64,000 nt of DNA from Acidobacteriota bacterium (GTDB lineage Bacteria; Acidobacteriota; UBA890), in assembly GCA_965216935.1 (NCBI GenBank), contig OZ244217.1, forward strand, positions 601,827-665,826, in the 5' to 3' direction. Position 1 is the first letter of the stretch; each line of letters opens with the position of its first letter. Below the pieces are notes generated by a model. That model saw only the letters and a program-made list of their open reading frames with translations. It was not told the origin of the DNA and did not search any database. Of this stretch, positions 1 through 29,406 are shown in pieces. The position numbers and the translations under genes are program-made.

Positions 1-757
1 GGCGCTGTTTCGTACGTTTCCGATGTGCGAGGACCTGGTGCGGGCGAGCCGGGCTACAGCGATGCACGGGGAGTCGGCCTGCGCCTGGCTGCGTGCCCAG
101 GTCCCGGCACCCGTAGTGTCCGTTGCTCACTGGCGTTCCGTCGATGTAGACCCCGAGGCGCGCGACGTGTGGAGGGGTCGTCTCGTCGGCGAAGACGAGG
201 TGTTGATCGGGAGCTTCGGCAACATCGGTCCGGAGCGCCGCCTCGACAAGCTCCTCGCCGCCCTCGCCGAGCTTCCGAGCGGGCTCCGCTGGCGGCTGGT
301 GGTTGCCGGCAGGGTGGCGCCCGATCTCGACCTCCAGGCGCGCGCCGGCGAGCTCGGCATCGCCGAGAGGGTCACCTGGCAGGCAACGCTGAACGACGCG
401 GATTTCGTCGCCGTGATGGCGGCGACAGACGTGGCCGTCAACCTCCGCTATCCGCCGGCCCGGGCCTCCTCGGGCGTGCTGCACCAGCTGTTGCAGCTTG
501 GCGTCCCGACGGTGATCAGCGACGTCGTGCACTGGCGCGACTATCCCTCGACGATCGTCAAACGAGTTCCACCGGGGCCGGACGAGGCCGAGCACGAAGC
601 CCTGCGCAGTGCGCTGGTCGCCTGGGTTGGTAGTGCCGGCGACCGCGCCACCGCCAGCGCCGCCGCGGCGTCCTGGGCGTCGTTGAACCTGACACCGGAG
701 CGGATGCGCGACAGCTATGTCGAGGCAGTCGGAGAAGCCGTGCGGCGGGCGGTCTAG
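1..757 (+). CDS. Glycosyltransferase family 1 (GT4), C-terminal part; 5' end lies outside the window
   Basis: Translation shows a GT-B C-terminal domain pattern (VVAGRV...RYPPARASSG...LGVPTVISDV). The ORF is open to the window start. Confidence 0.6.
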   Translation, partial: ALFRTFPMCEDLVRASRATAMHGESACAWLRAQVPAPVVSVAHWRSVDVDPEARDVWRGRLVGEDEVLIGSFGNIGPERRLDKLLAALAELPSGLRWRLVVAGRVAPDLDLQARAGELGIAERVTWQATLNDADFVAVMAATDVAVNLRYPPARASSGVLHQLLQLGVPTVISDVVHWRDYPSTIVKRVPPGPDEAEHEALRSALVAWVGSAGDRATASAAAASWASLNLTPERMRDSYVEAVGEAVRRAV

Positions 758-893
758 AGCCCGTGCGGCGGACGGTCCGGAGCCCGTGCGGCGGACGGTC
801 CGGAGCCCGTGCGGCGGACGGTCCGGAGCCCGTGGGGCGGATGGTCCGGAGCCCGTGCGGTGGGTGGTCCGGAGCCAGCGCGACGGGTGCTCC
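731..893. repeat. Tandem array of about 7 copies of a 23-bp unit (GGAGCCCGTGCGGCGGACGGTCC), each carrying the palindrome TCCGGA; the last copies are degenerate
   Basis: Direct reading: perfect copies at 756-778, 779-801 and 802-824, then diverged copies at 825-847, 848-870 and 871-893. The array begins inside the last codons of the upstream GT4 gene. Confidence 0.9.
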
Positions 894-1059
894 GGAACTC
901 CCCGGGACGGGCGGCCTCGAGTGCGTCTCGCGGGCCTCTCGCGGCGCGACCTTGATGTATCATCCCTCCTGACCCGCCCGCCGAGCCCGTGGATCCCGGA
1001 TCCCGACCTACATTGCGAACAGGCCCACCGGCGCCCTTCGTACGTCCCTGATCGATTCC

Positions 1060-2388
1060 ATGAACCATATGCAAATCGCCGTGATCGGCACCGGCTACGT
1101 TGGCCTCGTGTCCGGTGCGTGCTTCGCCGACTTCGGCATCAACGTCACCTGCGCCGATATCGACGAGGGCAAGATCGCGCAGCTCGAGGCCGGCGAGATC
1201 CCGTTCTACGAGCCGGGGCTGTACGAGAAGGTGCAGGCGAACGTTGCCGCCGGCCGGCTGTCGTTCACCACGGACGTGGCCGCGGCGATCCGCGACGCCC
1301 TGGTGGTGTTCATCGCCGTGGGCACACCGGCGAATCGCGACGGCACCGCCAACCTGACCTACATCGACGCCGTCGCCTCCGAGATCGGGCGCAATCTCGA
1401 CGGCTACAAGGTGGTAGTCACCAAGAGCACGGTGCCGCCGCGGACCGGGGAACGGGTGAGAACGCTGATCGAGGCCGAGGCCGGCGCGGACGCGCGCTTC
1501 GACGTCGTCTCGAATCCGGAATTCCTGCGCGAAGGCTCGGCGATCGAGGACTTCATGCGCCCGGATCGCATTGTCGTCGGGGCGGAGTCCGAGCGGGCCA
1601 TGGAGATCATGCGCGAGCTGTACCGGCCGCTCTACCTGATCGAGACGCCGTTCATCGTCACCGACGTGGCGACGGCGGAGATGATCAAGTACACCTCGAA
1701 CGCCTTCCTGGCCGTGAAGATCTCGTTCATCAACGAGATCGCCGACGTTTGCGAGCGCGTCGGGGCTGACGTGCATCAGGTCTCGAAGGCCATGGGGCTG
1801 GACGGACGTATCTCGAGCAAGTTCCTGCACCCGGGCCCCGGCTTCGGCGGCTCCTGTTTCCCGAAGGACGTCAGCGCGCTGGTATCGACGGCCGAAGCGG
1901 TCGACTTCGAGTTCAAGATCGGCAGGGCCGCCCTCGAGGTGAACGAGCGCCAGCGTCGCCTGATGGTCGAGAAGATCAAGGCGGTCGCGGGGGACGTGGA
2001 CGGCAAGGAAATCGGTTTCTTCGGCCTCGCGTTCAAGCCGAACACCGACGACATGCGCGACAGCCCGACGATCGAGATCATCAAGGGCTTGCAGAAGGCC
2101 GGGGCACGGATTCGCGCCTACGACCCGGCGGCGATGGAAAACGCCCGACACATCTTCGACGACGTCGACTACCGTGAAGACGCCTACGCCGTTGCCGAGG
2201 GTGCCGACGTTCTGGTCGTCGCCACCGAATGGAACCAGTTCCGCAGTATCGACCTGGAGCGCATCAAGGAGAGCATGCGTGAGCCCGTGGTTGTCGACAT
2301 GCGCAACATCTACGATCCCGCCCGGATGCGAGAGCTCGGATTCACGTACGATTGCGTCGGTCGGCCGGGCGGGAACCGGACGGCCTGA
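1060..2388 (+). CDS. ugd: UDP-glucose 6-dehydrogenase (UDP-glucose/GDP-mannose dehydrogenase family)
   Basis: N-terminal Rossmann motif MQIAVIGTGYVGLVSGACFA, catalytic GGSCFPKD motif, 442 aa full length. Confidence 0.92.
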   Translation: MNHMQIAVIGTGYVGLVSGACFADFGINVTCADIDEGKIAQLEAGEIPFYEPGLYEKVQANVAAGRLSFTTDVAAAIRDALVVFIAVGTPANRDGTANLTYIDAVASEIGRNLDGYKVVVTKSTVPPRTGERVRTLIEAEAGADARFDVVSNPEFLREGSAIEDFMRPDRIVVGAESERAMEIMRELYRPLYLIETPFIVTDVATAEMIKYTSNAFLAVKISFINEIADVCERVGADVHQVSKAMGLDGRISSKFLHPGPGFGGSCFPKDVSALVSTAEAVDFEFKIGRAALEVNERQRRLMVEKIKAVAGDVDGKEIGFFGLAFKPNTDDMRDSPTIEIIKGLQKAGARIRAYDPAAMENARHIFDDVDYREDAYAVAEGADVLVVATEWNQFRSIDLERIKESMREPVVVDMRNIYDPARMRELGFTYDCVGRPGGNRTA

Positions 2389-2444
2389 GCTGTTGAACCC
2401 TGTTAACCCCTGACGGCTCGCAGCGCCGCAACCAGGAGGGCGCA

Positions 2445-4034
2445 GTGGACCGGGACGAAGTCTCCGGACGCCTCGAGAAGGTCCGCGCCGCGGTGCGCGA
2501 GCGGCTTGCCGAGCGCGAGCCCGCGGTTTTCGACGACACGGCGCGTGAAGACGTTCCGTTCCACCTGCAGCCGGGGATCGGCGTCGTCATCGGGGGCGAT
2601 CCGCAGCTCACCGTCACCGACGAGCTGACCGAGGCGAACCGTACCGCGGACGTGTTCGGCCCGCTGCCCTCGCAGGCTCCGGTCGTCGGCCCGGTGATCA
2701 ACCTGGTGCGCCGCCTCATGCGTCCGGTCGTGAAGGTCTTCTTCGGCGAGCCCTTCGGCCGGCAGCAGGAGTTCAACGCCCACGCCGTGCGCCACATGAA
2801 CGAGCTCGGCAACCGGCTCGAGCAGCGGGTTCGCCATCTCGAGGAGGCGCTGGCCGAGTGGTCCGCGAACCCCGGCGGTATCGACGCGCGCGTGCGCAAG
2901 AGTCTGAACGACTACGACGCCGCCTTGCGACAGCGACACATGACGTTGTTTTCGGCGCTCGAGGAAGACGTGCTGGTGGCGCACACGGCCGCCGAGCGGG
3001 TGCAGAAGCTCGAGGAGCTGGTTGTCGAGCGCGCCCAGGCGGTCGATCGGCGTTTCGCCGAGAAGGACGAGGTCTTCGATCGCACCGTCAGCGAGTGGCG
3101 GCGTCGCGAAGGAGCGATCGACGATGCCGTCGGGCAGGTCGGTGAGCTCATGGCGATGCGCTCGTTGCTGCGCAAGGCGCTGGAAACGGCGTCGGCCCCG
3201 GGACCGGCAACGGTTGCGGGTGCGGCAGCCGCGGCGCCACAGGCAGCGGAATCGGTTGCGGTGGCCGCAACGACGCCCCCTGCGGGCGAGCCCGATGCCT
3301 GGAGCGAGCTCGGAGAGTGGATGGGGGACGAGGACTATCGCTCGTTTCAGGATCGGTTTCGCGGCGAGCCGGAGGTCATCGCCGAGCGCATGCGGGCGCA
3401 CGTGGCGCGTTTCGAGGATGCACCCGGGGTGGTCGCCGACCTCGGCTGCGGCCGGGGCGAGTTCCTCGACCTGCTGCGCGACGCCGGCCGCGAGGCGATC
3501 GGCGTGGAGATCAACGCCGCCGACGTCGAGGAGTGCAAGCGGCGCGGACACGAGGCGTTCGTCGGCGATCTGTTCGAATGGCTCGAAGACCGGGACGACG
3601 ACGAGCTCGGCGGTATCTTCATGGCACAGGTGATCGAGCATTTGCCGCCTACCGACTGGCAGCGCTTCGTCGAGCTGGCCGCCCGCAAGCTCGCCCCCGG
3701 GGGCCGCGTCGTCGTCGAGACGATCAACCCCGAGAGCCTCTACGCGCTGGCGCGCGCGTACGTCATCGACCCGACCCATATCCGGCCCGTGCATCCGGAG
3801 CTGCTGGCGTTTCTGGCTCGCCGCGCCGGGCTGCACCCGGTAGAGGTCGAGCTGCAGTCGCCGGTCCCGGACGACGAGCGCCCGACCGGGCTGCCGTTCT
3901 TCCGGGACCCGCCCGAGGGCGACCTGGGCGAGGAGCTGGCCTCGCTGAAGGAGGCCTTGTTGCGGCTCGATCGCATCTGCTGCGCGCCACAGGAGTACAC
4001 CCTGCAGGCGACAAAACCCGCGGGATCGCGCTGA
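2445..4034 (+). CDS. Two-domain protein: N-terminal 300 aa charged and coiled-coil-like (ELTEANRTA, EELVVERAQAVDRRFAEKDE) plus a C-terminal class I SAM-dependent methyltransferase
   Basis: The C-terminal half carries the DLGCGRGEF SAM-binding motif (motif I) and the LAPGGRVVVET post-I region. The N-terminal half has no recognisable catalytic motif. The stop overlaps the next start (TGATG). Confidence 0.7.
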   Translation: MDRDEVSGRLEKVRAAVRERLAEREPAVFDDTAREDVPFHLQPGIGVVIGGDPQLTVTDELTEANRTADVFGPLPSQAPVVGPVINLVRRLMRPVVKVFFGEPFGRQQEFNAHAVRHMNELGNRLEQRVRHLEEALAEWSANPGGIDARVRKSLNDYDAALRQRHMTLFSALEEDVLVAHTAAERVQKLEELVVERAQAVDRRFAEKDEVFDRTVSEWRRREGAIDDAVGQVGELMAMRSLLRKALETASAPGPATVAGAAAAAPQAAESVAVAATTPPAGEPDAWSELGEWMGDEDYRSFQDRFRGEPEVIAERMRAHVARFEDAPGVVADLGCGRGEFLDLLRDAGREAIGVEINAADVEECKRRGHEAFVGDLFEWLEDRDDDELGGIFMAQVIEHLPPTDWQRFVELAARKLAPGGRVVVETINPESLYALARAYVIDPTHIRPVHPELLAFLARRAGLHPVEVELQSPVPDDERPTGLPFFRDPPEGDLGEELASLKEALLRLDRICCAPQEYTLQATKPAGSR

Positions 4035-5083
4035 TGCCCGGGCGCCGCATCTGTGTCGCGGCGCCGCAGGTGCCGTACCTGCGTGGGGGCGCCGAACTGC
4101 ACACCGAGCTGCTCGTGCAGGCACTGAAGGACGCCGGGCACGACGTCGAGCTGGTGACACTGCCCTACATCTGGACGAACGACGAGAGCTCGCTGGAGCA
4201 GTGTCTCGCCTGGCGCATGGTCAACCTGTCGACGGAAATCGCCGGCATCGACCTGATGGTCGCCACCAAGTTCCCGTCGTACCTGATCAAGCACCCGAAC
4301 AAGGTGGCCTGGATCTTCCACCAGCAGCGCGAGGTCTATGACCTGCACGCGACACCGTTCGGCCGCCTCTCGGCCGGAAACGGCGACCGCGGCCTGCGCC
4401 AGGCCCTGGTCGAGCTCGACCTGCAGGGGCTGGGCGAGAATCGCAACCTGTTTGCCAACAGCCGCAACACCGCCGCTCGCGTGGCCCGCTATTGCGGCCT
4501 CGAGGCGACCGCCCTGTACGCGCCGCCGAAGCTGCATGCCGACCTGCACACCGGGCCGTACGGTGACTACTTGCTGTACGTCGGCCGGCTCGACCGCATC
4601 AAGCGGATCGACCTGACCCTCGAGGCAATGGCGCGGACGCGCGGCTCGTTCGTTCTGAAGATCGCCGGCCGCGGGCCCGACCAGGAGAACTTGCAGCGTA
4701 CGGTCAACGAGCTCGGCCTCTCGAAGCGGGTGGAGTTCCTCGGTTTCGTATCCGACGAGGAGGTCGTCGATCTTTATGCCGGCTGTTTCGCCGTGGCGCT
4801 CACGCCCCACGACGAGGACTACGGATTCACCACGCTCGAGGCGTTTTTCGCCGGCAAGCCGGTGGTTACTACGGAGGACGCCGGCGGCGTGCTCGAGTGG
4901 GTGCACGACGGGGAGACCGGGTTCGTCGCCCCACCGGAACCGGCAGCGATCGCCGAGAAGCTCGACATCCTCGCCGCGGACCGGGCCCTGTGCGAGCGAC
5001 AGGGCACCGCCGGCCGCGACCGGGTGCGCGCCGAGGTGAGCTGGTCGAAGGCGATCGAAGCCCTGACCGCGACCCTGGAATAG
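4034..5083 (+). CDS. Glycosyltransferase family 1 (GT4)
   Basis: GT-B fold signatures: N-terminal ICVAAPQVPYLRGGAE and C-terminal GFTTLEAFFAGKPVV (EX7E-type region). The ATG at 4034 overlaps the upstream stop by 1 nt. The longer track ORF (3317..) is an upstream artefact. Confidence 0.85.
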   Translation: MPGRRICVAAPQVPYLRGGAELHTELLVQALKDAGHDVELVTLPYIWTNDESSLEQCLAWRMVNLSTEIAGIDLMVATKFPSYLIKHPNKVAWIFHQQREVYDLHATPFGRLSAGNGDRGLRQALVELDLQGLGENRNLFANSRNTAARVARYCGLEATALYAPPKLHADLHTGPYGDYLLYVGRLDRIKRIDLTLEAMARTRGSFVLKIAGRGPDQENLQRTVNELGLSKRVEFLGFVSDEEVVDLYAGCFAVALTPHDEDYGFTTLEAFFAGKPVVTTEDAGGVLEWVHDGETGFVAPPEPAAIAEKLDILAADRALCERQGTAGRDRVRAEVSWSKAIEALTATLE

Positions 5084-5125
5084 CCGCCGTGACGGAAGCG
5101 GAACAAACGGAGGCGAGATAGATCG

Positions 5126-6448
5126 ATGCGCATTGCCGCCGCGCTGCCCAGCCTCGAGCCGACCGCGCCGCACCGGCGCGCCCTCGACGCGATGCTCGCA
5201 CGCGTCGTCGAGGCGGGCCACGAGGTCGCGGGCTTCGCCGAGCACGACCGCACCGAGGACGCCGCACCGTTTCCCGTTTTCCACTATCTGCGCATGCCCG
5301 AGCGGCACGACGATCGCGCCTTCGACGCCGCCCTCTATCCGATTGGCCGCGACGCTTCGCCCTATCAGGGGGTGTTCGCGCTGATGCATCGCTACCCGGG
5401 CGCGGTCTGGTTTCTCGACCCCATCGTGCATCACTTCGCCGTCGGCGGGATCGCGCTGATGGACGACTGGGTCGGCTACCGCCGGCTGCTCGACGAGGCC
5501 TACGGCACCGACGGTGGAGCGCTGGCGCAGACAGTGGCGTCGAACTGGGGGACGGGGGCGTTGTTTCGTCGCTACGACCTCGTGCAGGCGATGGCAGCCG
5601 GGCAGAAGCGGGTGCTGGCGGCGTGGCCCGCGTTGGCCGACAGGCTGTCGGCGCGTCTCGAGGGGCGCGAGATCGGCGTGGTTCCGCTGGTGTCGGCGGC
5701 GTCGTCGGTGGGTCGTGCTGCCGGAGGGCCTGCCGACGGGTCTGCCACAGCGATCCGGCGCCTCACCATTATGACGGTCAACGAGTCGTTCCCGGCCAGT
5801 GCCGTGCGGGTTGCCGCAGCGGCGCTGGACGTTGCCGACGATCTCGACGTGCGCCTGTGCATGAGCGAGCCGATTCATCGCACCGAGGGAGCGCGCCTGG
5901 CCGAGCGATGGGGCATCGAAGGGCGGATCGACTGGATGCTGAACAACGTCCCGGAGCGCCTGGCGGAGGCGGCCGCGGACAGCGACATCGTCGTCTGGCT
6001 GGCCGAAGAGCTGGAAGGACGGCATCGGCTGGTGCTGCTCGATGCGATGGCCGACGGCCGGATCACGTTCGTCCCGCGAGGCGGCCTCTACGACGACCTG
6101 CCCGACGGAGCGGTGATTCGGCTCGATCTCGGCCGGACGCTGCCGTCCGTGTTCGGTGGACTGCTGGAGGCGATCACCCAGGACCATGAGCTCGCCGCCG
6201 GCCTGGTGGAACAAGCCCGCGCGTTTGCCCGGACGCGCCCGACCCCGGACGAAGCGGCCGCAATGCTGGTCGACGAGCTACGCGCTTCCGCCGCCGCCGG
6301 CCCGGTCGCGCCCCGGCCGATCTCGCGCCCGAGCTGGGAGAAGGTGGATGCGGGGGCCGCTTCCGCCGGTGTTCCCGGCGGAGCCGGCGACCCGACGCGG
6401 GATCGCGTCGCCGAGATCCTGCGCCGGCAGACCGAACCCTTCCGATGA
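5126..6448 (+). CDS. Divergent GT-B/GT4-like protein, possibly catalytically degenerate
   Basis: The N-terminus MRIAAALPS...VVEAGHEVAGFA resembles the GT4 N-domain. The C-terminal region LVLLDAMADGRITFVPRGG resembles the GT4 donor-binding region but lacks a clean EX7E motif. The stop overlaps the next gene's start (ATGA). Confidence 0.4.
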   Translation: MRIAAALPSLEPTAPHRRALDAMLARVVEAGHEVAGFAEHDRTEDAAPFPVFHYLRMPERHDDRAFDAALYPIGRDASPYQGVFALMHRYPGAVWFLDPIVHHFAVGGIALMDDWVGYRRLLDEAYGTDGGALAQTVASNWGTGALFRRYDLVQAMAAGQKRVLAAWPALADRLSARLEGREIGVVPLVSAASSVGRAAGGPADGSATAIRRLTIMTVNESFPASAVRVAAAALDVADDLDVRLCMSEPIHRTEGARLAERWGIEGRIDWMLNNVPERLAEAAADSDIVVWLAEELEGRHRLVLLDAMADGRITFVPRGGLYDDLPDGAVIRLDLGRTLPSVFGGLLEAITQDHELAAGLVEQARAFARTRPTPDEAAAMLVDELRASAAAGPVAPRPISRPSWEKVDAGAASAGVPGGAGDPTRDRVAEILRRQTEPFR

Positions 6449-9168: not shown

Positions 9169-9172
9169 CGAA

Positions 9173-12080: not shown

Positions 12081-12165
12081 CAGGCGGCGTTGTGCGTGTC
12101 ATGGGGTTGGTTACGACGAAGTTGAAGCGGCTGCTTGCGAAGGGGAGAGGCTACGGGCCTGGCAG

Positions 12166-13404
12166 ATGAGAATCCTGCACCTGGCAACGACGTACCCGCT
12201 TCATGGCGGCGACAGCAACGCCGCCTTCGTCGAAGCGCTGGTCGAGGGGCTGTGCCGCCGCGGCCACGAGGTGCACGTCTTGCTGCCCTGGCACCCCCGC
12301 CTCGAGCTCGAGCGGGAGGGGCGCTCTGCGGTGCTTCATTCGTTCATGGCCACGCCGTTCAAGAGCTGGCACCCCTGGGGCTACGCCCAGGCGCTGTCCG
12401 CCGATCGATCGCTGCGCTGGGACGCCTATCTCGCCACCCCGTTTGCCGCCTTCTCGGCGGCACGTGCGATGCGCGCGATCATGCGGCGCACCGACGTCGA
12501 CGTCGTGCACGCGAACTGGCTACTTCCGGCCGCCCCGATCGTCAGGTCGGCGCTACGCGGCTCGGACAAACCGATGATCGTGTCGTGCCACGGCAGCGGC
12601 GTGTTTCTGGCGCAGAAGCGTTCGTGGGCGTCGTCCGCGGCACGCTGGGGGTTGCGGCGCTCCGGCGCGGTGACAGCGTGCTCCCGCGACCTTACCCGCC
12701 GGGTGGCGGCGCTGGGCGCCGGCCCGGAGCCGCAGTGGGTTCCGTACGGCGTCGATCTCGAGAACTTCCGTCCCGCCGGCGCGGAAGATCGCCGCCGCCG
12801 GCGTCGCGAGTTGGCCGAGCGGCTGGGCCTGCAACCCGACGCCCCGTGGATCCTGGCGGTCGGTCGGCTCGTCTACAAGAAGGGGTTCGAGTACCTGGTG
12901 CGGTCGATGGCCGATGTACGCGCCCGGGTCCCGGATGCCCAGCTGGTGGTTGCAGGCGACGGGCCGCTCCGGCCGCAGCTCGCCGCCGCCGCAGCGGAAA
13001 CCGGCGTGACCGACGCCGTGCACCTGGTCGGCGCCGTCGCACACGCCGATCTCCCCGCCCTGTACAGCGCCGCCGATATCGTCGCGGTTCCCTCGGTCCA
13101 CGGACCCGGTGGCAACGTCGACGGCCTTCCGAACGTGTTTCTCGAGGGCCTGGCGAGCGGCACCGCGGTGGTCGCGAGTCGCATCGCCGGAATTCCCGAC
13201 ATCGGCCGCGACGGCGAGACCGTCGTGCTGGTCGGCGAGGGGGACATCCCGGGTCTTGCCGACGCCATCGCCGGGTTGCTCGAGGATCCCGCCCGACGGG
13301 AAGCGTTGGGGAAGGCGGCCCGGGCGGACGCGGAAGACCGGCTCGGGTGGGATCACGTTGCGGCCCGATTCGAGAGCCTCTACCAGGAGCTGGAGCGGCC
13401 ATGA
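12166..13404 (+). CDS. Glycosyltransferase family 1 (GT4)
   Basis: MRILHLATTYPLHGGDSNAAF...GLPNVFLEGLASGTAVVASRIAGIPD, GT-B signatures. Confidence 0.88.
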   Translation: MRILHLATTYPLHGGDSNAAFVEALVEGLCRRGHEVHVLLPWHPRLELEREGRSAVLHSFMATPFKSWHPWGYAQALSADRSLRWDAYLATPFAAFSAARAMRAIMRRTDVDVVHANWLLPAAPIVRSALRGSDKPMIVSCHGSGVFLAQKRSWASSAARWGLRRSGAVTACSRDLTRRVAALGAGPEPQWVPYGVDLENFRPAGAEDRRRRRRELAERLGLQPDAPWILAVGRLVYKKGFEYLVRSMADVRARVPDAQLVVAGDGPLRPQLAAAAAETGVTDAVHLVGAVAHADLPALYSAADIVAVPSVHGPGGNVDGLPNVFLEGLASGTAVVASRIAGIPDIGRDGETVVLVGEGDIPGLADAIAGLLEDPARREALGKAARADAEDRLGWDHVAARFESLYQELERP

Positions 13405-14660
13405 GCGTCGATGACGCGGCCCCCGTGCGTCCCGCATCGGCCGGTGGAGCGAGCCGCGACCGTAGCCTGACGCAGCAGGTCGATGACAGCGCCAAACGCA
13501 TCGACTTCGTCTTTCCCCGCTTCAAGCTCCTCTCCGGAGCGGAACGCGCCATTCTCGGCCTCGCCGAAGCGCTCGTGCGCGGTGGACACGCGGTCCGGAT
13601 CGTGTGCCATCAGTTCGACGATTCGTGCCGACCCCGGCTGGCCGACGGTGTCGAGTTGGTGGTCTCCGGTGCGCGGCTGGACTTCTCCCGGAATCGTTAC
13701 GTGAACGCCGTATTCGACTACGGCCGGACGCTCAAGCTCGGGCGGCTTCTCGACCCGGAAGCCGACGCTCGGGTTCACTTCGGCCCGGCGCTGTTGCTGG
13801 CGCGACGACATCTGAAGCGGAGCCGGGCGGCCGGTATCCCGTCGATCTACTACTGCTGGGAGCCGCCGCGGGTCCTGTATCAGGACAGGGGCGAGGTGCT
13901 CGATCGCCTCGGTTGGCTGCGCTGGCCGATGGCGGCAGCGCTCGCCGTGTACGCCGGCGTCGATCGTCGCATGGTCATGGCTGTGGACCAGGTCGTGACG
14001 TCGAGCCCGTTCGCGGCCCGCCGGATCGAAGAGATCTACGGACGCCCGGCCGGGGTGATCACCCTGGGAATCGATCGCCGACGGCTCGACGCCGCACGAG
14101 AGCGGCAGCCCGCCGACCCGCCGCGGTTGTTGACCGTCAACTACCTGCACCCGCGGAAGCGGGTCGACCTGATCGTTCGGGGTGCGGCAGAGCTCGACGG
14201 GCAACTCGTGGCGGCCGCCCCGGTGCTGACGATCGTCGGGGACGGCCCGGAAAAGGATCGGCTGAAGGAGCTGGCGAAGGAGCTCGGCATCGCCGATCGG
14301 GTGGTGTTCGCCGGCTTCGTTCCCGACGAGGAGCTGCCACGCTACTACGGCGAGGCGACCTGCTACGTTCACGCCACCCGTGACGAATCGTTCGGCCTCT
14401 CGGTGATCGAAGCGTCGTACTGCGGATTGCCCGTCGTTGCCGTCGACGAAGGCGGCGTGAAGGACACCGTCGAGGACGGCACGACGGGGTATCGTGTGGC
14501 AGCCACGCCGGCATCGATCGCGGCAGGGATCGCGCGTGTGCTGGCCTCGCCCGATCGTGGCAAAGGCTTGGGGGAGGCGGGGCGGCGGAACATCGATGCC
14601 CGTTTTCGCTGGAGTCGCGGTGCCGAGGATCTTCTCGAGGCGGCGCGAAGCAAGGGGTGA
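13401..14660 (+). CDS. Glycosyltransferase family 1 (GT4)
   Basis: ATG 13401 overlaps the upstream stop (ATGA). C-terminal ESFGLSVIEASYCGLPVVAVDEGGVKDTV is an EX7E motif. The 841-aa ORF in the track is a frame artefact upstream of this start. Confidence 0.85.
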   Translation: MSVDDAAPVRPASAGGASRDRSLTQQVDDSAKRIDFVFPRFKLLSGAERAILGLAEALVRGGHAVRIVCHQFDDSCRPRLADGVELVVSGARLDFSRNRYVNAVFDYGRTLKLGRLLDPEADARVHFGPALLLARRHLKRSRAAGIPSIYYCWEPPRVLYQDRGEVLDRLGWLRWPMAAALAVYAGVDRRMVMAVDQVVTSSPFAARRIEEIYGRPAGVITLGIDRRRLDAARERQPADPPRLLTVNYLHPRKRVDLIVRGAAELDGQLVAAAPVLTIVGDGPEKDRLKELAKELGIADRVVFAGFVPDEELPRYYGEATCYVHATRDESFGLSVIEASYCGLPVVAVDEGGVKDTVEDGTTGYRVAATPASIAAGIARVLASPDRGKGLGEAGRRNIDARFRWSRGAEDLLEAARSKG

Positions 14661-14670
14661 TAGGGGACGG

Positions 14671-16110
14671 ATGGTCAGGGAGCGGTTGACGAGCCCCGGG
14701 CGGCGGCGTTTCGGGGAGTGGGGCGTGCCCTTGTTGCTGGGGCTGGCGGCGCTGGTGTTGTTCACGCCGCGCATCTACGGCGCCGACGAGATCAAGCTGT
14801 TCGCCCCCTTACGCTCGCTGTACTTCGACGGCGACCTGCACTACGAAAACGAATACACCTACTTCATCGACGCGGATCCGGTGGCGCACGCCGGGCTGGT
14901 CGCCTATCGCGACGCGGTGACGTCGACCGGGTACCGGCTCAACGACGGAACCATCGGCTCGGCGCTCTTGTGGTCGCCCTTCTACGTTGCCGCGGACATC
15001 GGGGTGATGGTTACCGGCTGGTTCGGTTCGGAGGTGCCGCGGGACGGATACAGCGCGCCGTACGTCTGGGCGGTGTGTTTGGGGTCCCTTTTCTGGGGCA
15101 CGGCCGGGTTGTTCATTACCTACCGCCTGTGCCGCGAGTATGCCGACGCCGCCTCCTCCACGGCGGCCCTGGTGGGCATCTGGTTCGCCACTCCGGTGGT
15201 CTTCTACCTGTACATCACACCACCGATGGGCCACGCGAACTCGCTGTTCGCCGTCTCGCTGTTCATCTTCATCTGGTTGCACACGCGCGAGGAGCGACAG
15301 GCATGGGAGTGGGCCGCGCTCGGGGCGAGCGCCGGGCTGATGGTCATCGTCCGCGAGCTCAACGGTGTGTTCCTGCTCGCCCCGGTCATCGATGAGCTGG
15401 GGGAGGCCTGGGACGCTTTCCGCGTCGCTCGCGTCGAGAGCGCACTCGACTCGCGCGGGTTGATCGTCACCTGGTGGGACCGGTTCAAGCCGCGGGTCTC
15501 CGGGTACGCCCTCTTGCTCGTGCCGTTCCTCATCGTCGTGGCACCGCAGTTCCTCGTCTATCGGATCACACACGGCACCTTCGGGCCTTCCGAGGTGGTG
15601 CTGGTGAAGTTCTCCAGCTTTCCGATCCACGCCATCGACGTGCTTTTCTCCGGGTTCCATGGGCTCTTCTCGTGGTCGCCGATCACCCTGATCGGCGTCC
15701 TCGGATTGCTCGCCCTGGCGCGCCGCAACCGCCGCGTGGCGCTGGCGCTGTTCGCCGTCTTCGCCGCCCAGGTGTGGGTGATCGGCTCGTATGACACCTG
15801 GTGGGCCGGCGCGTCCTTCGGCGCCCGGCGCTTCATCAACTGCATGCCGATCTTCGCCATGGGCCTGGCGCTGTTGCTCGACGGATTGCGCCAGCCGGCC
15901 CATCGGCTCGCCGTCGGCGGCATCGTCATGCTGATCTTCTGGAACTTCGGCCTCGCCATCCAGTACGGCACCGGCATCATCCCGCGAGACCAGCCGGTCG
16001 AGATGCGGACAATCGTTCGCAACCAGGTGCTGGAGGTTCCACCGCGGTTGTTCGAGGTCGCCTGGCGTTTCGTCACCGACCGCTCGTCGTTTTACCAGAC
16101 CCGCTCATGA
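14671..16110 (+). CDS. Polytopic membrane protein (about 11 predicted TM helices), GT-C-like (PMT/ArnT-type) glycosyltransferase candidate
   Basis: First extracytoplasmic loop carries an acidic motif (YGADEIKLF...YFDGDLHYENEYTY) reminiscent of the GT-C DE/DxD catalytic loops. Hydrophobic throughout. Confidence 0.5.
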   Translation: MVRERLTSPGRRRFGEWGVPLLLGLAALVLFTPRIYGADEIKLFAPLRSLYFDGDLHYENEYTYFIDADPVAHAGLVAYRDAVTSTGYRLNDGTIGSALLWSPFYVAADIGVMVTGWFGSEVPRDGYSAPYVWAVCLGSLFWGTAGLFITYRLCREYADAASSTAALVGIWFATPVVFYLYITPPMGHANSLFAVSLFIFIWLHTREERQAWEWAALGASAGLMVIVRELNGVFLLAPVIDELGEAWDAFRVARVESALDSRGLIVTWWDRFKPRVSGYALLLVPFLIVVAPQFLVYRITHGTFGPSEVVLVKFSSFPIHAIDVLFSGFHGLFSWSPITLIGVLGLLALARRNRRVALALFAVFAAQVWVIGSYDTWWAGASFGARRFINCMPIFAMGLALLLDGLRQPAHRLAVGGIVMLIFWNFGLAIQYGTGIIPRDQPVEMRTIVRNQVLEVPPRLFEVAWRFVTDRSSFYQTRS

Positions 16111-17474
16111 CCGACTCTGCGGCGGGCGCTGCGGCGGGCGCTGCCGGCGACGGGGCGTCGCCGACCGGCGAGCTGGCAGTGCTCCTGGTGACCGACGTCT
16201 ACCCGCCGGGGTGCGGGGGCAGCGGCTGGTCGACGCACGCGCTGGCACAGACGCTGTCGACCCGCGGCCATCCGGTCGAGGTCGTCGGCATGGATCCCGC
16301 CTCGACCGGCCTGACCCAGCGGGTCTTCGAGGGTATTCGCATTACCGAGGTCGGCGTACGCGCGGCGCGCCGAAGCCCGTTGCGGCGCTGGGGGCGGCAG
16401 GACTACGCCCACCGCGCCCTGCAGCTGTATCTCGAGATGCGCCTACGCGACGATCCGTCGGTTGGTCTGGTCCACGCCCAGCATCTCCACAGCGGGCCGC
16501 CCGCGGTGGCGGCTGCCGCGACGTGTGGGCGGGCTTCGATCGTGACCCTACGCGACTACTGGCCGGTTTGCCTGCACGGGACTTCATGGTGGGGCGGCAA
16601 GGAGTGTCCCGGATGCAGCACCGCGGACCTCGTCGGTTGTCTGGGCGAGTATCGTGGTTGGCCGACGCCGATCGCACGCGCGATGGTGCCGTGGGTGCGA
16701 CGTCGGCTGGACGAGCGTCGTGCCGGAATCGCGCCGGCCGGTCGGCTGATCACCGTGAGCGACTGGGTGCGGCAGCGCATCGAGCGCGAGGCCCCCCAGG
16801 CCCGTTACGTCGTGTTGCCGAACATGGTCGACCCGGCCACGGCCCGTGCGGCCGCCGCCGCGGCGGCACCGGTCGAGCTGCCGTTTTCGGGCGACTACCT
16901 GATGGCGGCGGGGAAGCTCGTCGCCACCAAGGGATTCGACCGCATGCTCGCGGCGTTGGCCGAGGCCGACAGCCGGCTCCCGGTCGTCATCGCGGGTACC
17001 GGTTCTGCGGGCGACCGCTTGCGACGACAGGCCGAAGAGCTGCCTTTCGAGGTCTTCTTCCCCGGTTGGGTGGGGCACGACAGCTTGCTCCGCGCGATCT
17101 CAGAGGCGCGGGCGTTCCTGCTCCCGAGCGCCTGGAACGAGCCGCTGTCGCGGCTCCTGCTCGAGGCGATGGCAGTCGGTGTGCCGGTGATCACCTGGCG
17201 GAGCGGCGGCAACCCGGAGCACCTCGAGTCGGGTGTCGACGCGTTTGTCGTCGACGATGCCGGTGACCTGCGGCGCGCGCTGCAGCACCTCGCCGATCCC
17301 GGCCGCGCCGCGGAAATGGGTGCCGCCGGCGCACGGCGCGCCGGCGAGCGATTCTCGCCGGATGCGGTGTACCCCCGGCTGATGGAGGCGTACCGCGACG
17401 CTCTGGCCGAGGTTGGGAGGCCAGGTCTACCGGCTCCGGCGGCCACCCCGCCGGCAAAGCCGCCGGCCGGATGA
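16107..17474 (+). CDS. Glycosyltransferase family 1 (GT4)
   Basis: VLLVTDVYPPGCGGSGWSTH...EPLSRLLLEAMAVGVPVITWRSGGNPE. ATG overlaps the upstream stop (ATGA). Confidence 0.85.
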   Translation: MTDSAAGAAAGAAGDGASPTGELAVLLVTDVYPPGCGGSGWSTHALAQTLSTRGHPVEVVGMDPASTGLTQRVFEGIRITEVGVRAARRSPLRRWGRQDYAHRALQLYLEMRLRDDPSVGLVHAQHLHSGPPAVAAAATCGRASIVTLRDYWPVCLHGTSWWGGKECPGCSTADLVGCLGEYRGWPTPIARAMVPWVRRRLDERRAGIAPAGRLITVSDWVRQRIEREAPQARYVVLPNMVDPATARAAAAAAAPVELPFSGDYLMAAGKLVATKGFDRMLAALAEADSRLPVVIAGTGSAGDRLRRQAEELPFEVFFPGWVGHDSLLRAISEARAFLLPSAWNEPLSRLLLEAMAVGVPVITWRSGGNPEHLESGVDAFVVDDAGDLRRALQHLADPGRAAEMGAAGARRAGERFSPDAVYPRLMEAYRDALAEVGRPGLPAPAATPPAKPPAG

Positions 17475-18706
17475 GCGGCCCGCCGATGCGTGTCGTCATG
17501 GTGTCCCGGCGCGTCCATCCGGCGCACGGACCCGGAGGGATGGAACGCAAGGTCTTCGACCTGGCAGTGCGCCTCGGTCGCGCCGGGGTCGAAGTCGAGC
17601 TGTTCAGCGAGACCCCCGCCGACCCGGCGCGGGCGACAGCCGCCGCGGCCGAGATGCCGCCCGGCGTGATCCTCGAGTGGGTGCCGGGTCGCTGGCTTCC
17701 GATCGGGGATCGTACCGGCACGATCGTGCTCGATCGGATCACGAACTACCCGATGTGGGCCCGTCGCGCCGGCCGCTGGGTGCGCGATTCTCGCGACGCG
17801 GCTCCCACCGTCGTGCACGCACACGGCCTGGCGGCGTGGGGCTTTGTCGGCATCGACGTCGGGGCGCCGCTGGCAATGTCGGTGGAGGGCCTGGAGGAGT
17901 TCGAGGCGCCGGCCGGGTTGAAGCGGCTGGCGTACGCGCCGTTCCGGCGGCGTATGCGACGGGGGGCCGCCGCGGCGGATGTCGTGATTGCCACGGACCG
18001 GGCTCTCCAACCCGTGGTCGAACGACGCCTCGGGATCCCTGTTTCCGAGCAGGCGATGATTCCCAACGCCGTCGATCCGGAAGCCTGTCGCGCCCTGGGA
18101 GATGCCACCCGAGGGCGCGCCTTGCTTGCCGAGCTGGGCATTGAAGGCTCCGGGCCGGTGCTGCTCTCGGTGGGGCGGCTGGAGGCGAACAAGGGCTTCG
18201 ATGTGCTCGCACGCGCGCTTGCGGCGGCCGGCGATGATCTCGCCCCGGGGTGGGCGTGGGTCCTCGTCGGCGACGGCCCGGAGAACGCTTCGATTCAGGC
18301 GGCGATCCGGTCAGCGGGCATCGCGTCGAGCACGGTGATGGCCGGAAGGCTCTCTGATACCGAGCTCCACAGCCTCGCCGCCGCAGCGGATTGGTTCGTC
18401 CACCCGACACTTTTCGAGGGCTCGAGCCTGGTTTCGCTCGAGGCCATGGCGCATGGCTTGCCATTGATCGCTTCCAACGCCGGCGGGCTTCCCGACAAGG
18501 TGCTCGACGGGGAGAGCGGCTTTCTCGTGCCGCCGGGAGACGTCGATGCGTTGGCCGGAGCTCTGGCTCGCATCGCCGCCGTCGACGGAAAGGCGATGGG
18601 GTCGGTGGGTCGTCGCCGGTGCGAGGAGCTGTTCAGCTGGGATACCGTCATCGGTCGCTATGTCGACCTGTACCGGTCGCTGGCGGAGGCGAGCAGGCCG
18701 CGGTGA
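17471..18706 (+). CDS. Glycosyltransferase family 1 (GT4)
   Basis: MRVVMVSRRVHPAHGPGGMERKV...FEGSSLVSLEAMAHGLPLIASNAGGLPD. ATG overlaps the upstream stop (ATGA). Confidence 0.85.
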   Translation: MSGPPMRVVMVSRRVHPAHGPGGMERKVFDLAVRLGRAGVEVELFSETPADPARATAAAAEMPPGVILEWVPGRWLPIGDRTGTIVLDRITNYPMWARRAGRWVRDSRDAAPTVVHAHGLAAWGFVGIDVGAPLAMSVEGLEEFEAPAGLKRLAYAPFRRRMRRGAAAADVVIATDRALQPVVERRLGIPVSEQAMIPNAVDPEACRALGDATRGRALLAELGIEGSGPVLLSVGRLEANKGFDVLARALAAAGDDLAPGWAWVLVGDGPENASIQAAIRSAGIASSTVMAGRLSDTELHSLAAAADWFVHPTLFEGSSLVSLEAMAHGLPLIASNAGGLPDKVLDGESGFLVPPGDVDALAGALARIAAVDGKAMGSVGRRRCEELFSWDTVIGRYVDLYRSLAEASRPR

Positions 18707-18825
18707 AAGTGTGAGGGTTCCGGCCACGAGGACCCGAGGCTGAAGGTGGCCTGGGTGCCCGACCGCGTCGCCTCGGCCGTTGTCGGGCGGGCAGGCTCGC
18801 GGCGGCCATCCTGGTAGACTTCTCC

Positions 18826-19725: not shown

Positions 19726-19745
19726 ACCGCCGGGAGAACGCCACC

Positions 19746-21343: not shown

Positions 21344-21371
21344 TCCCGCAGCACCAAGGAGGAGAGAGGTC

Positions 21372-28613: not shown

Positions 28614-28625
28614 CGGGCGATTCCC

Positions 28626-29180: not shown

Positions 29181-29341
29181 CGAGTGATTGTAGCAATTGT
29201 GTCCCTGGGCGCCTTCGGCGCGAACGGCGGACGGTGCGACGCACGGCCGAGCGGTTCGACGATCGCGGCGGACGGTCGCGCCTCGCCGGTCTCCCGAGCT
29301 ACCGAATCCCCGTCCCCTCGGCTTCCGAACCCGCGGACTGT

Positions 29342-29393: not shown

Positions 29394-29406
29394 GCGGCCG
29401 GCGGTC

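Follow-up and report, generated by a model that had tools for sequence, protein, structure and literature searches.

An uncultured branch of Acidobacteriota shares a conserved 14-gene cluster for sugar assembly. At a probability of roughly 55%, we read it as an operon-like set of genes, passed on by vertical descent, whose products make a single conserved envelope oligosaccharide on a lipid anchor, with the work divided between two compartments. The cluster opens the window (the whole 64,000-nucleotide stretch of DNA that was analyzed) and includes an overlooked module of lipid-sugar synthases, a flippase-like protein, and membrane transferases. With this module counted, the pathway looks normal, although uncharacterized, and poses no puzzle.

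Gene content and layout

GC3 frame analysis gave 14 consecutive plus-strand genes at 2 to 18706 and no credible minus-strand gene, in agreement with the original prediction. The features, in order along the window, are as follows.

g1, 2..757, plus strand: C-terminal 251 aa of a ~450-aa GT4-like protein (Pfam Glycos_transf_1, E=2.6e-8)
23-nt tandem repeat, 738..896, no strand: 6-7 copies, TRF score 222, covers the g1 stop codon
g2, 1060..2388, plus strand: UDP-glucose 6-dehydrogenase (Ugd), all three UDPG_MGDP_dh domains (E 1e-36 to 1e-65)
g3, 2445..4034, plus strand: 529 aa, helical N terminus of ~300 aa, C-terminal class-I SAM methyltransferase
g4, 4034..5083, plus strand: GT4 (Glycos_transf_1, E=1.6e-33), EX7E present, motif EDYGFTTLE
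g5, 5126..6448, plus strand: 440-aa soluble GT-B/GT4-fold protein without catalytic motif, overlaps the g6 start by 4 nt
g6, 6445..9168, plus strand: 907-aa GT-C-fold membrane glycosyltransferase, ~13 TM helices, 270-aa beta-rich periplasmic C-terminal domain
g7, 9173..10267, plus strand: GT2 polyprenyl-phosphate glycosyltransferase (DPMS/ArnC/AglJ type), DGD motif, two C-terminal TM helices
g8, 10264..11130, plus strand: second GT2 polyprenyl-phosphate glycosyltransferase (GtrB/DPMS type), DAD motif, two C-terminal TM helices
g9, 11127..12080, plus strand: 317-aa polytopic PF03706/UPF0104 protein (MprF flippase-domain, AglD2/YbhN)
g10, 12166..13404, plus strand: GT4, both GT-B halves (Glycos_transf_1, E=1.9e-34; Glyco_transf_4, E=2e-20), DX7E variant motif
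g11, 13401..14660, plus strand: GT4 (Glycos_transf_1, E=5e-37), EX7E, motif ESFGLSVIE
g12, 14671..16110, plus strand: 479-aa GT-C-type (PMT_2-like) membrane glycosyltransferase, ~10 TM helices
g13, 16107..17474, plus strand: GT4 with EX7E (Glycos_transf_1, E=1e-21; Glyco_transf_4, E=1.4e-11)
g14, 17471..18706, plus strand: GT4 with EX7E (Glycos_transf_1, E=5.5e-32), last gene of the conserved set

The window edge cuts g1, the first gene of the run. Overlaps of 1 to 4 nt account for 7 of the 13 junctions (1 nt at 4034, between the g3 stop and the g4 start; 4 nt at 6445, 10264, 11127, 13401, 16107, and 17471), not the "at least nine" originally counted, and the remaining six are gaps of 302, 56, 42, 4, 85, and 10 nt. 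The 4-nt overlaps join g5 to g6 and g7 to g8 to g9, with the 4-nt gap between g6 and g7. The translationally coupled operon that had been proposed is plausible for the 14 genes, but a single operon is unproven because the gaps of 302, 85, 56, and 42 nt leave room for internal promoters. Stop/start overlaps also occur between unrelated neighbors in the window (e.g., at 20282 and 27183-27186), and the plus-strand run extends past g14 through five unrelated genes to 23856; therefore, neither feature is special to the glycan locus. The 23-nt repeat, whose six matches all lie at 738..896 (0.01 expected), takes up much of the 302-nt g1/g2 spacer, which measures 63 to 105 nt in relatives.

Ugd, methyltransferase, and GT4-fold proteins

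Pfam confirmed both the Ugd and the methyltransferase of the original prediction. By its domains, g2 is the predicted source of UDP-glucuronate. Residues 314 to 467 of g3 match Methyltransf_23 (E=2.8e-17), and a Pfam search of the helical N terminus gave no matches. The best PDB match of g3 is 3dli (E=5e-35); the PDB search detected no sequence similarity to WbdD structures. JGI labels relatives of g3 "O-antigen chain-terminating methyltransferase."

Six GT4 enzymes and one degenerate copy had been counted. Pfam does find GT4 domains in six proteins (g1, g4, g10, g11, g13, and g14), and the degenerate copy, g5, is borne out by its fold and its catalytic site. Searches of Pfam and NCBIfam with g5 returned nothing, and its AlphaFold (AF2) model (pLDDT 82.5) has as its top Foldseek matches the GT4 GT-B enzymes MshA, PimA, BshA, and WaaG (best E=5e-13, highest TM 0.70); the EX7E site is not conserved. 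This protein is likely a pseudo-glycosyltransferase or scaffold. The place of g1 among the active enzymes is less secure, as its Pfam score is weak and a motif check found no EX7E. Its full-length homologues (453 and 424 aa) follow uvrA in two syntenic relatives, L001 and L002. It may be a second degenerate GT4-fold protein, and the tally may then be five to six enzymes plus one or two degenerate proteins (g5 by structure, g1 suspected), perhaps five active and two degenerate.

Predicted lipid-sugar synthases, a candidate flippase, and GT-C proteins

The text of the original prediction did not extend to five of the genes (g7 and g8, GT2; g9, PF03706; g6 and g12, GT-C), and omission of the first three left its inventory incomplete. 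In Pfam, g7 and g8 match Glycos_transf_2 (E=7e-23 and E=1.6e-33, respectively). The best NCBIfam matches are AglJ, Dol-P hexose transferase, PpgS, and ArnC for g7 and AglJ (2.8e-33), Dol-P hexose transferase, PpgS, and PgfS for g8; in the PDB, g7 best matches DPMS (5mlz, 2.7e-12) and then ArnC, and g8 matches DPMS (1.6e-16), ArnC, and GtrB sll0501. These best matches, together with the TM helices and the DxD motif, identify g7 and g8 as predicted makers of polyprenyl-phosphate sugars. Adjacent g9 matches LPG_synthase_TM (PF03706; E=9e-31, 107.9 bits against a cut-off of 33.4) and NCBIfam TIGR00374, "flippase-like domain-containing protein" (65 bits against a cut-off of 43), and is a candidate flippase for lipid-linked sugars. 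To our knowledge, translocation by PF03706 proteins has been shown for aminoacyl-phospholipids only, and a role with polyprenyl-phosphate sugars is a prediction.

The AF2 model of g6 (pLDDT 83.4, pTM 0.86) has GT-C proteins as all of its top 33 PDB fold matches (STT3, DPY19, ALG9/12, Emb, AglB, ArnT, PglB, Aft, and Pmt4); the best are oligosaccharyltransferases, with all GT-C classes scoring similarly in Foldseek. By sequence, its sole Pfam match is PMT_2 (E=0.009), and searches of the PDB and NCBIfam gave none. It has neither an STT3 Pfam match nor the WWDYG motif; its beta-sandwich does contain an invariant WDD. From its model, g6 is predicted to represent an unclassified GT-C family, outside the described ones. 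The second protein, g12, matches PMT_2 (E=1.4e-5, 25.8 bits against a cut-off of 26.1) and belongs to a large family (6168 representatives at E<=1e-3). Acidic positions are conserved in the first periplasmic loop of both: invariant D149 and D170 in g6 and a D39, D53, and D55 cluster after TM1 in g12.

Conservation and flanking genes

The same 14 genes occur in the same order and between the same flanks (uvrA upstream, CycH-Ig/GcvT-like downstream) in relatives in which g6 is only 40 to 43% identical. A core of g4, g6, g7, g8, and g10, with g11 to g14 nearby, persists in Vicinamibacterales, where it is flanked by the nqr operon and an IS element. Such conservation fits a conserved envelope structure rather than a variable O-antigen/EPS island. 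Around the Vicinamibacterales copy, there is no phosphoglycosyltransferase (PGT), Wzx, Wzy, Wzz, Wza, or ABC exporter. The 10 kb around such copies yielded no g9 homologue, which counts against the pathway proposed below.

In L001 and L002 (g3 identity, 79% and 55%), uvrA is directly upstream of g1 with a 4-nt overlap, preceded by a small cupin gene, a TP_methylase gene, and a toxin-antitoxin pair; in L002, a CycH-Ig gene directly follows g14. The genes downstream of the locus are housekeeping genes. The window also carries Omp85/BamA-like genes, consistent with a diderm host.

Family searches of the 14 proteins and the rest of the window found no match to Wzx, Wzy, Wzz, Wza, an ABC exporter (Wzm/Wzt), or a PGT, as had been claimed for exporters and WbaP/WecA-type initiators. 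Nor is there an exporter, polymerase, ligase, or PGT within ~7 kb upstream in the two relatives or 45 kb downstream in the window; the gene immediately upstream in those relatives is uvrA, not an exporter with a WbaP-type initiator. The claim of "no recognisable exporter" holds for canonical ones but was overstated, given flippase-like g9 (PF03706, NCBIfam) and the polyprenyl-phosphate glycosyltransferases g7 and g8. With the two GT-Cs, these proteins form the known three-component arrangement for periplasmic glycosylation, an addition to assembly in the cytoplasm and no substitute for polymer export. A missing PGT and exporter are normal for LPS-core and lipoglycan pathways.

Proposed pathway and alternatives

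The analysis shows which genes are present, the folds and families of their products, their synteny, and that canonical exporters are absent nearby; from these we infer the enzymatic steps, sugars, and acceptor that follow. In the cytoplasm, judging by protein families, Ugd would make UDP-glucuronate, five or six GT4s would use nucleotide sugars to extend a membrane-bound acceptor one step after another, with GT4-fold g5 and perhaps g1 as noncatalytic partners, and g3 would methylate a sugar. In a periplasmic stage drawn from the three-component paradigm, each of g7 and g8 would couple a sugar to polyprenyl phosphate, g9 would be the candidate flippase for these lipid-sugars, and g6 and g12 would transfer them to the already translocated glycan, giving two modules of GT2, flippase, and GT-C. 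The locus encodes neither priming nor bulk translocation, and housekeeping genes at other sites in the genome would have to supply both. The three-component parts list is complete, with two GT2s, a PF03706 protein, and two GT-Cs (g6 by fold search, g12 by PMT_2). Such systems are well established (PMC11127046), the triad of GT2, UPF0104, and PMT/STT3-like proteins has already been predicted as an archaeal glycosylation module (PMC5898192), and UPF0104 proteins are predicted glycolipid flippases in gpgSDF and hexSDF (PMC12713373).

The acceptor that we favor, tentatively, is lipid A-Kdo, i.e., an LPS-core-type oligosaccharide flipped by MsbA, for which no PGT, polymerase, chain-length regulator, or exporter would be needed in the locus. 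Because the locus contains no GT9, GT30, or Kdo gene, this assignment draws on conservation, the absent polymer genes, and one distant context: a g6 relative at 26% identity adjoins a GT9 (heptosyltransferase-family) gene and lies beside NeuB and CMP-sugar synthetase genes and a DegT/epimerase/GT2 Arn-like set, which hints at LPS-related acceptors for the g6 family. Against a fixed oligosaccharide, the helical N terminus of g3 and its "chain-terminating" label would fit polymer length control better.

Those features of g3, whose helical region resembles that of ruler-type terminators, support an unlikely alternative, an ordinary O-antigen, capsule, or EPS locus. An undecaprenyl-diphosphate glycan would have a WecA/WbaP-type start, Wzx/Wzy or Wzm/Wzt would be encoded elsewhere in the 5.87-Mb genome, g3 would be the chain-terminating methyltransferase, and the GT2s, g9, and the GT-Cs would add periplasmic side-chain decorations. 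Such loci typically combine many GT4 genes with Ugd and a methyltransferase, and wecA is commonly unlinked from O-antigen loci. Side-chain addition to O-antigens is also the classical use of GtrB and GT-C (PMC11127046). However, the ~7 kb upstream in two relatives and the 45 kb downstream in the window lack the expected machinery, g3 lacks detectable sequence similarity to WbdD structures, and order and flanks are conserved to ~40% identity, unlike those of hypervariable islands.

We give little credence to two further readings. In a haloarchaeal Agl-like pathway in a bacterium, an AglJ-like GT2 would start by adding a hexose to polyprenyl monophosphate, and the GT4s, together with Ugd and the methyltransferase, would build this up to a uronic-acid-containing methylated oligosaccharide. 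Next, g9 would flip it, g6 would transfer it en bloc to protein or another acceptor, and the second GT2 and g12 would add the final sugar, as AglD and AglS do. In the Agl pathway, AglM is Ugd, AglP a methyltransferase, and AglJ and AglD GT2s; our locus parallels these parts, as well as the UPF0104 domain of AglD (PMC5898192), and has two GT-Cs. Such a pathway would explain both the missing PGT and the missing exporter, AglJ is the best NCBIfam match of both GT2s (1e-31 to 1e-33), and the top g6 fold matches are STT3-type oligosaccharyltransferases and AglB. Yet the AglJ scores are far under the family cut-off (110-116 bits versus 325), g6 lacks STT3 signatures, Foldseek does not separate oligosaccharyltransferases from ArnT, Emb, ALG, and PMT, and the cytoplasmic extenders are GT4s here versus GT2s in Haloferax. 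A lipoglycan or complex glycolipid with a glycerolipid anchor, comparable to corynebacterial lipomannan on glucuronosyl-diacylglycerol, is similarly improbable: a GT4 would put Ugd-derived GlcA on diacylglycerol or phospholipid, further GT4s would extend it, g9 would flip the glycolipid, and the GT-Cs would elongate it from g7/g8 polyprenyl-phosphate sugars. LM/LAM follows this logic, from nucleotide-sugar GT4s to GT-Cs with polyprenyl-phosphate sugars, and has a GlcA-diacylglycerol anchor with neither PGT nor dedicated exporter (PMC2440535, PMC12041525), and the gpgSDF and hexSDF flippases are predicted to act on GT4-made glycolipids (PMC12713373). PimA is among the g5 fold matches, and MGlcDAG and GlcN-PG synthases appear in the NCBIfam lists with weak scores, but these GT4 matches are generic and far under cut-offs, nothing in the locus indicates a specific lipid anchor, and the host is diderm. 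We know of no such glycerolipid-anchored lipoglycan from diderms.

Comparison with known systems

The conserved oligosaccharide pathway that we prefer shares parts with several known systems. E. coli O9a-type O-antigen is made by an ABC-transporter-dependent pathway with a WbdD terminator; the shared features are multiple GT4s, a methyltransferase with a long helical stretch attached, and the JGI label, but our locus lacks Wzm/Wzt, and g3 has no kinase domain, the opposite domain order, and no detectable similarity to WbdD. The archaeal AglD-like neighborhood (arCOG00897/00899/00563; PMC5898192) has the same family triad, and Haloferax Agl adds best GT2 scores against AglJ/Dol-P hexose transferases, Ugd, and a methyltransferase. 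Unlike in these, the system is bacterial, the UPF0104 protein stands alone rather than fused to GT2, AglJ scores are below cut-off, no STT3/AglB-type signature is present, and the cytoplasmic extenders are GT4s.

In corynebacterial and mycobacterial PIM/LM/LAM synthesis (PimA, PimB', MgtA, Ppm1, PimE, MptA, and MptB; PMC2440535, PMC12041525), cytoplasmic GT4s likewise act first on a membrane lipid and GT-Cs follow with polyprenyl-phosphate sugars from a GT2 synthase, without PGT or canonical exporter; a GlcA-based anchor would be possible via Ugd. The sequence relationship is at family or fold level only, our host is a diderm acidobacterium, and the genes are clustered in an operon-like locus here but scattered in Actinobacteria.

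Three-component periplasmic systems (GtrA/GtrB/Gtr*, ArnC/ArnEF/ArnT, CsbB/GtcA/YfhO, and Citrobacter ORF15/ORF14/ORF12; PMC11127046, PMC8035078) share the GT2 synthase with C-terminal TM helices, the adjacent small polytopic candidate flippase, the GT-C with acidic residues in its first outer loop, and adjacent, translationally coupled genes. Here, however, the candidate flippase is PF03706/UPF0104 rather than GtrA, SMR, or MATE, one such protein accompanies two synthases and two GT-Cs, g6 lies outside any described GT-C family, and the module is embedded in a conserved, operon-like GT4 locus and is no accessory seroconversion cassette.

LPS core assembly and the periplasmic decoration of core or lipid A involve Waa GT4 enzymes such as WaaG, as well as ArnT and, in Rhizobium, RgtE/RgtA-D galacturonosylation. 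Our locus differs in having no GT9 heptosyltransferase, GT30 Kdo transferase, kinase, ArnA/ArnB, or UDP-GlcA epimerase, and we know of no LPS structure for these organisms. Nevertheless, it shares with LPS core assembly a run of GT-B transferases without PGT, polymerase, or exporter that is conserved in the lineage, WaaG is among the g5 fold matches, the distant g6 relative adjoins a GT9 gene, and, as in LPS core decoration, a Ugd-derived uronic acid could travel via a polyprenyl-phosphate carrier and a GT-C.

Gene content and organization of the locus

Because the G+C content of the window is about 68%, raw ORF lists were uninformative; genes were called from third-position GC and frame plots. 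Fourteen consecutive genes (g1 to g14, with g1 truncated by the window edge) fill positions 2 to 18706, where no minus-strand ORF has coding periodicity. All 14 lie on the plus strand, as the original prediction had stated. Families were assigned with Pfam and NCBIfam.

Genes of the locus, in order (window 2-18706, plus strand)
g1 (2-757, plus strand): GT4 glycosyltransferase, weak match (34 bits)
g2: UDP-glucose 6-dehydrogenase (Ugd)
g3: about 300 helical residues with no domain match, then a class-I SAM methyltransferase
g4, g10, g11, g13, g14: GT4 glycosyltransferase each
g5: no Pfam or NCBIfam match
g6: 907 aa, about 13 TM helices, marginal PMT_2 match only
g7, g8: GT2 glycosyltransferases (Pfam Glycos_transf_2)
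g9: 317 aa, polytopic; PF03706 (LPG_synthase_TM) and TIGR00374 ("flippase-like domain-containing protein"), both above cut-off
g12: 479 aa with some 10 TM helices; PMT_2 match of 25.8 bits, below the cut-off of 26.1

These assignments and a structural model of g5 agree in essence with the earlier count of six GT4 enzymes, one degenerate GT4, Ugd and a methyltransferase. The g5 model (27 homologues as input, pLDDT 82.5) superposed on the GT4 enzymes MshA, PimA, BshA and WaaG, with E values down to 5e-13 and TM-scores up to 0.70. The EX7E motif is absent from g5, and the corresponding column is not conserved among the 27 homologues; g5 is probably an inactive protein with a GT4-like fold. EX7E is also missing from g1, which has SSGVLHQLLQ at the expected position, and this absence together with its weak score makes a second degenerate protein possible, so that, judged from sequence, the locus may hold two rather than one. 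A defense-system reading, raised by weak GT4-conflict matches, was rejected: these matches overlapped the same GT4 domains, lay below or near cut-off and were far weaker than Glycos_transf_1.

Relatives of g3 carry the JGI name "O-antigen chain-terminating methyltransferase," which is an automatic label. When g3 was compared with the WbdD arrangement of methyltransferase and kinase on a coiled-coil ruler, it was found to carry the methyltransferase domain alone, at its C terminus. A phmmer search of the PDB returned 3dli and other small methyltransferases and zero WbdD entries at an E value of ≤0.01, giving no sign of kinship with WbdD.

The seven overlapping junctions listed in the original prediction are correct (TGATG at 4034; ATGA or GTGA at 6445, 10264, 11127, 13401, 16107, and 17471), but its figure of at least nine is not: 7 of the 13 internal junctions overlap, and the other six have gaps of 302, 56, 42, 4, 85, and 10 nt. 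Four-nucleotide overlaps also join unrelated neighbors at 20282 and at 27183-27186 and are therefore common in the source genome. Several overlaps of the locus (g3/g4, g10/g11, g12/g13, and g13/g14) are kept in L002, a distant syntenic relative. The plus-strand run itself extends beyond the glycan genes, as listed here.

Unrelated genes continuing the run (18706 to 23856, plus strand; Pfam)
transglutaminase-like/TPR protein
CycH-Ig lipoprotein
GcvT/YgfZ-like protein
metallo-beta-lactamase-fold protein
SH3 protein

Co-orientation is therefore a trait of the chromosome arm and not of the glycan genes alone. The run ends with a 582-aa proline-rich protein (22108-23856) for which Pfam returned a single match, SH3_3, below threshold (E = 2e-4; 21.9 bits, cut-off 27). 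In 1-19.9 kb, sites resembling promoters or terminators did not exceed shuffled expectation, so these scans speak neither for nor against a single operon, and the window has no Rfam match. A 23-nt tandem repeat, CCGTGCGGCGGACGGTCCGGAGC, is present in 6-7 copies at 738-896 and nowhere else in the window. Its first copy forms the final 20 nt and stop codon of g1, and the repeat enlarges the g1/g2 spacer to 302 nt, compared with 63-105 nt in relatives.

Predicted lipid-sugar synthases, a flippase candidate and membrane glycosyltransferases

The genes g6 to g9 and g12 are missing from the text of the original prediction. Both GT2 proteins have two C-terminal TM helices, with a DGD motif in g7 and a DAD motif in g8. 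Their best NCBIfam matches were AglJ, haloarchaeal Dol-P hexose transferase, PpgS, PgfS, and ArnC, and their best solved relatives in the PDB were the Pyrococcus dolichol-phosphate mannose synthase (DPMS), ArnC, and GtrB. Every one of these enzymes uses polyprenyl monophosphate as the sugar acceptor.

PDB sequence searches with g5, g6, g9, and g12, both single and profile, gave no meaningful match, and a fold search was therefore required. The g6 model (22 homologues as input, pLDDT 83.4, pTM 0.86) had GT-C membrane glycosyltransferases as all of its best 33 PDB matches (STT3, DPY19, ALG9/12, EmbC, AglB, ArnT, PglB, AftA/D, and Pmt4), at TM-scores of just 0.36-0.54 (target-length normalized), which do not resolve the GT-C subfamily. 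The first periplasmic loop contains two invariant aspartates, D149 and D170. The periplasmic domain of g6 comprises 270 beta-rich residues, and its beta-sandwich contains an invariant G-x-W-D-D; the STT3 Pfam domain and the WWD (WWDYG) motif are both absent from g6. In g12, which belongs to a very large family (6168 representatives), a conserved acidic cluster (D39, D53, and D55) directly follows TM1. We do not regard g6 and g12 as paralogues, as profile-profile comparison of the two families gave a probability of only 28%.

There was no GtrA, EamA/SMR, or MatE match, and the slot next to the GT2 genes is held instead by g9. Two other identities for g9 were rejected. No aminoacyl-PG synthase domain lies nearby and a PDB phmmer search with g9 returned no MprF match, which leaves MprF aside, and hpn genes are absent from the vicinity, which does the same for a hopanoid (HpnL-type) protein.

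Canonical export and priming genes

Neither Wzx nor Wzy had a Pfam or NCBIfam match in g1 to g14, elsewhere in the window, or in the flanking regions of L001, L002, and L016 (L001 being a second syntenic relative and L016 another locus with a g6-family gene). Bac_transf and Glycos_transf_4 (MraY-type) domains, which would mark an initiating phosphoglycosyltransferase (PGT), were absent among the scanned proteins of the window, L001, and L002. The window has zero ABC matches, and the ABC-type matches nearby are faint and lie within UvrA, upstream in relatives only. The original prediction of no Wzx/Wzy, initiating PGT, or Wzm/Wzt therefore holds for these regions, and the locus likewise has no chain-length regulator. 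Its broader statement that there is no recognizable exporter is accurate for the canonical machinery; it overlooked a flippase-like gene and recognizable synthases of lipid-linked sugars.

The other 45 kb of the window contains no exporter and consists of housekeeping genes, including hslUV, xerC, trmFO, topA, obg, nadD-like, and aroA, as well as an Omp85-PD40 protein and peptidases. On the minus strand, 25519-36299 holds topA, an arginase-family gene, trmFO, a thioredoxin-like gene, xerC, hslV, and hslU, followed by a gene for an fn3-domain protein; the topA-trmFO-xerC-hslVU order is familiar chiefly from Firmicutes. The gene at 38516-41605, preceded by a TPR protein gene, encodes a protein of 1029 aa in which PD40 (WD40-like beta-propeller) repeats are joined to an Omp85 barrel at the C terminus, an unusual BamA/TamA-family architecture.

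The upstream context of g1 was taken from L001 and L002. A canonical exporter and a WbaP-type initiator immediately upstream, which had been named as the arrangement that would overturn the original prediction, were not seen there; instead, uvrA directly precedes full-length g1 with a 4-nt overlap (L001, 4105-7152; L002, 498-3395). This overlap suggests that a DNA repair gene forms part of the glycan run or is coupled to it. Just before uvrA, both relatives carry a gene for a 149-aa dTDP-sugar-isomerase-like cupin.

Conservation across the Acidobacteriota

L001 (79% identical) and L002 (g6 40-43% identical) share both the gene content and the gene order of the locus, and in L002 CycH-Ig and GcvT-like genes follow g14. 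A g6-family scan of the genome collection gave 77 loci, nearly all from Acidobacteriota (Vicinamibacteria/Vicinamibacterales, Marinacidobacterales, and other MAGs); more distant, partial matches came from Chloroflexota. Complete 14-gene synteny is present in L001 to L009. The Vicinamibacterales share a core of g4, g6, g7, g8, and a g10-like GT4, and their loci had no detectable homologue of g9 within 10 kb. In L016, g11 to g14 adjoin the core on the opposite strand, and the flanks hold an nqr operon and an IS element, with no exporter or PGT around them.

A g6 relative of 26% identity lies in a large cluster in L081 (1-22586, JGI metagenome 3300044834), beside four GT2 genes, a YfhO-like GT-C, a DegT aminotransferase and epimerase, a GT4, a GT9-family gene, two NeuB genes, and CMP-sugar synthetases. 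From its gene content, this setting looks LPS/Arn-like or related to nonulosonic acids; the DegT/epimerase set occurs in this distant cluster only and not in the locus. The contig of P0235, a distant g12 relative, was too short for informative context. Another full-length g6-like GT-C of 26% identity (L010, 8757-12505, on the Vicinamibacterales MAG chromosome OZ250139.1) begins at the stop of a Cas1-like ORF (PF01867, E = 1e-10), with IS110 and DDE transposases and a tyrosine integrase on its flanks. Other locus genes are absent nearby, and the context looks mobile.

Discussion

An established route of extracytoplasmic glycosylation combines a polyprenyl-phosphate sugar synthase of the GT2 type with a small polytopic protein and a GT-C enzyme; its flippase family differs among systems, being GtrA, SMR, or MATE (PMC11127046, PMC8035078). 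Makarova and colleagues predicted that UPF0104/PF03706 proteins are lipid-sugar flippases, on the basis of an archaeal neighborhood of AglD-like GT2, UPF0104, and a PMT/STT3-like enzyme (PMC5898192). In gpgSDF and hexSDF, UPF0104 is likewise presumed to flip the glycolipid (PMC12713373), and it is widely fused to glycosyltransferases (bioRxiv 10.1101/2022.03.11.483950).

From gene content, folds, families, and synteny, we infer the enzymatic steps, sugars, and acceptor of the pathway as follows. The proteins g7, g8, g9, g6, and g12 would form two three-component modules with one flippase candidate, g9, in common. The GT4 enzymes, Ugd, and the methyltransferase would act in the cytoplasm on the lipid-anchored glycan that these modules also modify, and housekeeping functions would prime and translocate what we propose to be a conserved, nonpolymeric envelope oligosaccharide. 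Such a product fits the lack of a PGT, polymerase, chain-length regulator, and exporter, the gene order and flanks kept across deep divergence, the housekeeping surroundings, and the GT9 gene beside a distant g6 relative. As its acceptor we tentatively favor lipid A-Kdo, which would make the product an LPS-core-type structure that MsbA flips, at a probability of roughly one in three. Missing canonical machinery is typical of core or lipoglycan-type pathways, and the lack of an exporter would here denote a pathway type that needs none in cis rather than missing or exotic export.

An ordinary O-antigen or EPS locus, with wecA and the exporter genes unlinked, would account for the mix of GT4, Ugd, and methyltransferase genes and for the JGI label on g3 relatives, but the strong conservation of the locus and a g3 without any detectable similarity to WbdD make it unlikely. 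The parts list also mirrors that of the haloarchaeal Agl route (AglJ, AglD, AglM, AglP, and two GT-Cs). In a bacterial counterpart, an AglJ-like GT2 rather than a PGT would prime an oligosaccharide on polyprenyl monophosphate, the GT4s would extend it with Ugd-derived uronic acid and it would be methylated, the stand-alone, MprF-type PF03706 protein would flip it, g6, from a new family of large GT-C enzymes, would pass it en bloc to an acceptor in the envelope or to a protein, and the second GT2/GT-C pair would add the last sugar. Such a pathway, if real, would make its glycan independently of both a PGT and an exporter and would be conserved across Acidobacteriota; given that g6 lacks STT3 signatures and that the fold search cannot tell GT-C classes apart, we consider it improbable. 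We give similarly little credence to a glycerolipid-anchored lipoglycan: its enzyme logic agrees with that of corynebacterial lipomannan on GlcA-diacylglycerol (PMC2440535, PMC12041525), but specific sequence support is absent and no precedent is known from diderms.

We know of no experimental work on the envelope glycans of these Acidobacteriota, which abound in soil and sea and include Vicinamibacteria together with related uncultured classes, and a literature search returned no paper on the locus and none on acidobacterial LPS core structure. Being conserved, set among housekeeping genes, and easy to recognize, the locus is a good entry to the core envelope glycoconjugate of these bacteria. 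It raises the questions of whether stand-alone PF03706 "flippase-like" proteins can move polyprenyl-phosphate sugars, as predicted since 2015, what the donor sugar and acceptor of the g6 GT-C family are, and what role catalytically degenerate GT4-fold proteins play beside a GT-C enzyme. Every component is of a known kind, and the GT2/UPF0104/GT-C triad had been predicted earlier. What is new is its bacterial, lineage-wide, 14-gene embodiment, the unclassified GT-C family of g6, which has no Pfam, NCBIfam, or PDB sequence relatives, and the conserved pseudo-GT4 partner, g5.

Among known systems, the ABC-transporter-dependent pathway has a WbdD-like terminator that g3 does not match. The Arn pathway shares Ugd, ArnC-like GT2s, and GT-C enzymes with the locus, whereas its ArnA and ArnB are without counterpart there (no formyltransferase, epimerase/dehydratase, or DegT match). 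The likeness of g6 to the STT3/PglB/AglB oligosaccharyltransferases is that of a generic GT-C fold, lacking their signatures. In MprF, PF03706 is fused to a DUF2156/LPG synthase domain, whereas g9 has PF03706 alone. In its parts the locus resembles the three-component systems: g7 and g8 both have the DxD motif and C-terminal TM helices of the GT2 synthase, g6 and g12 both have the acidic first outer-loop residues of the GT-C enzyme, and in place of a GtrA, SMR (ArnE/F), or MATE flippase, a PF03706 protein of a different family occupies the functional slot.
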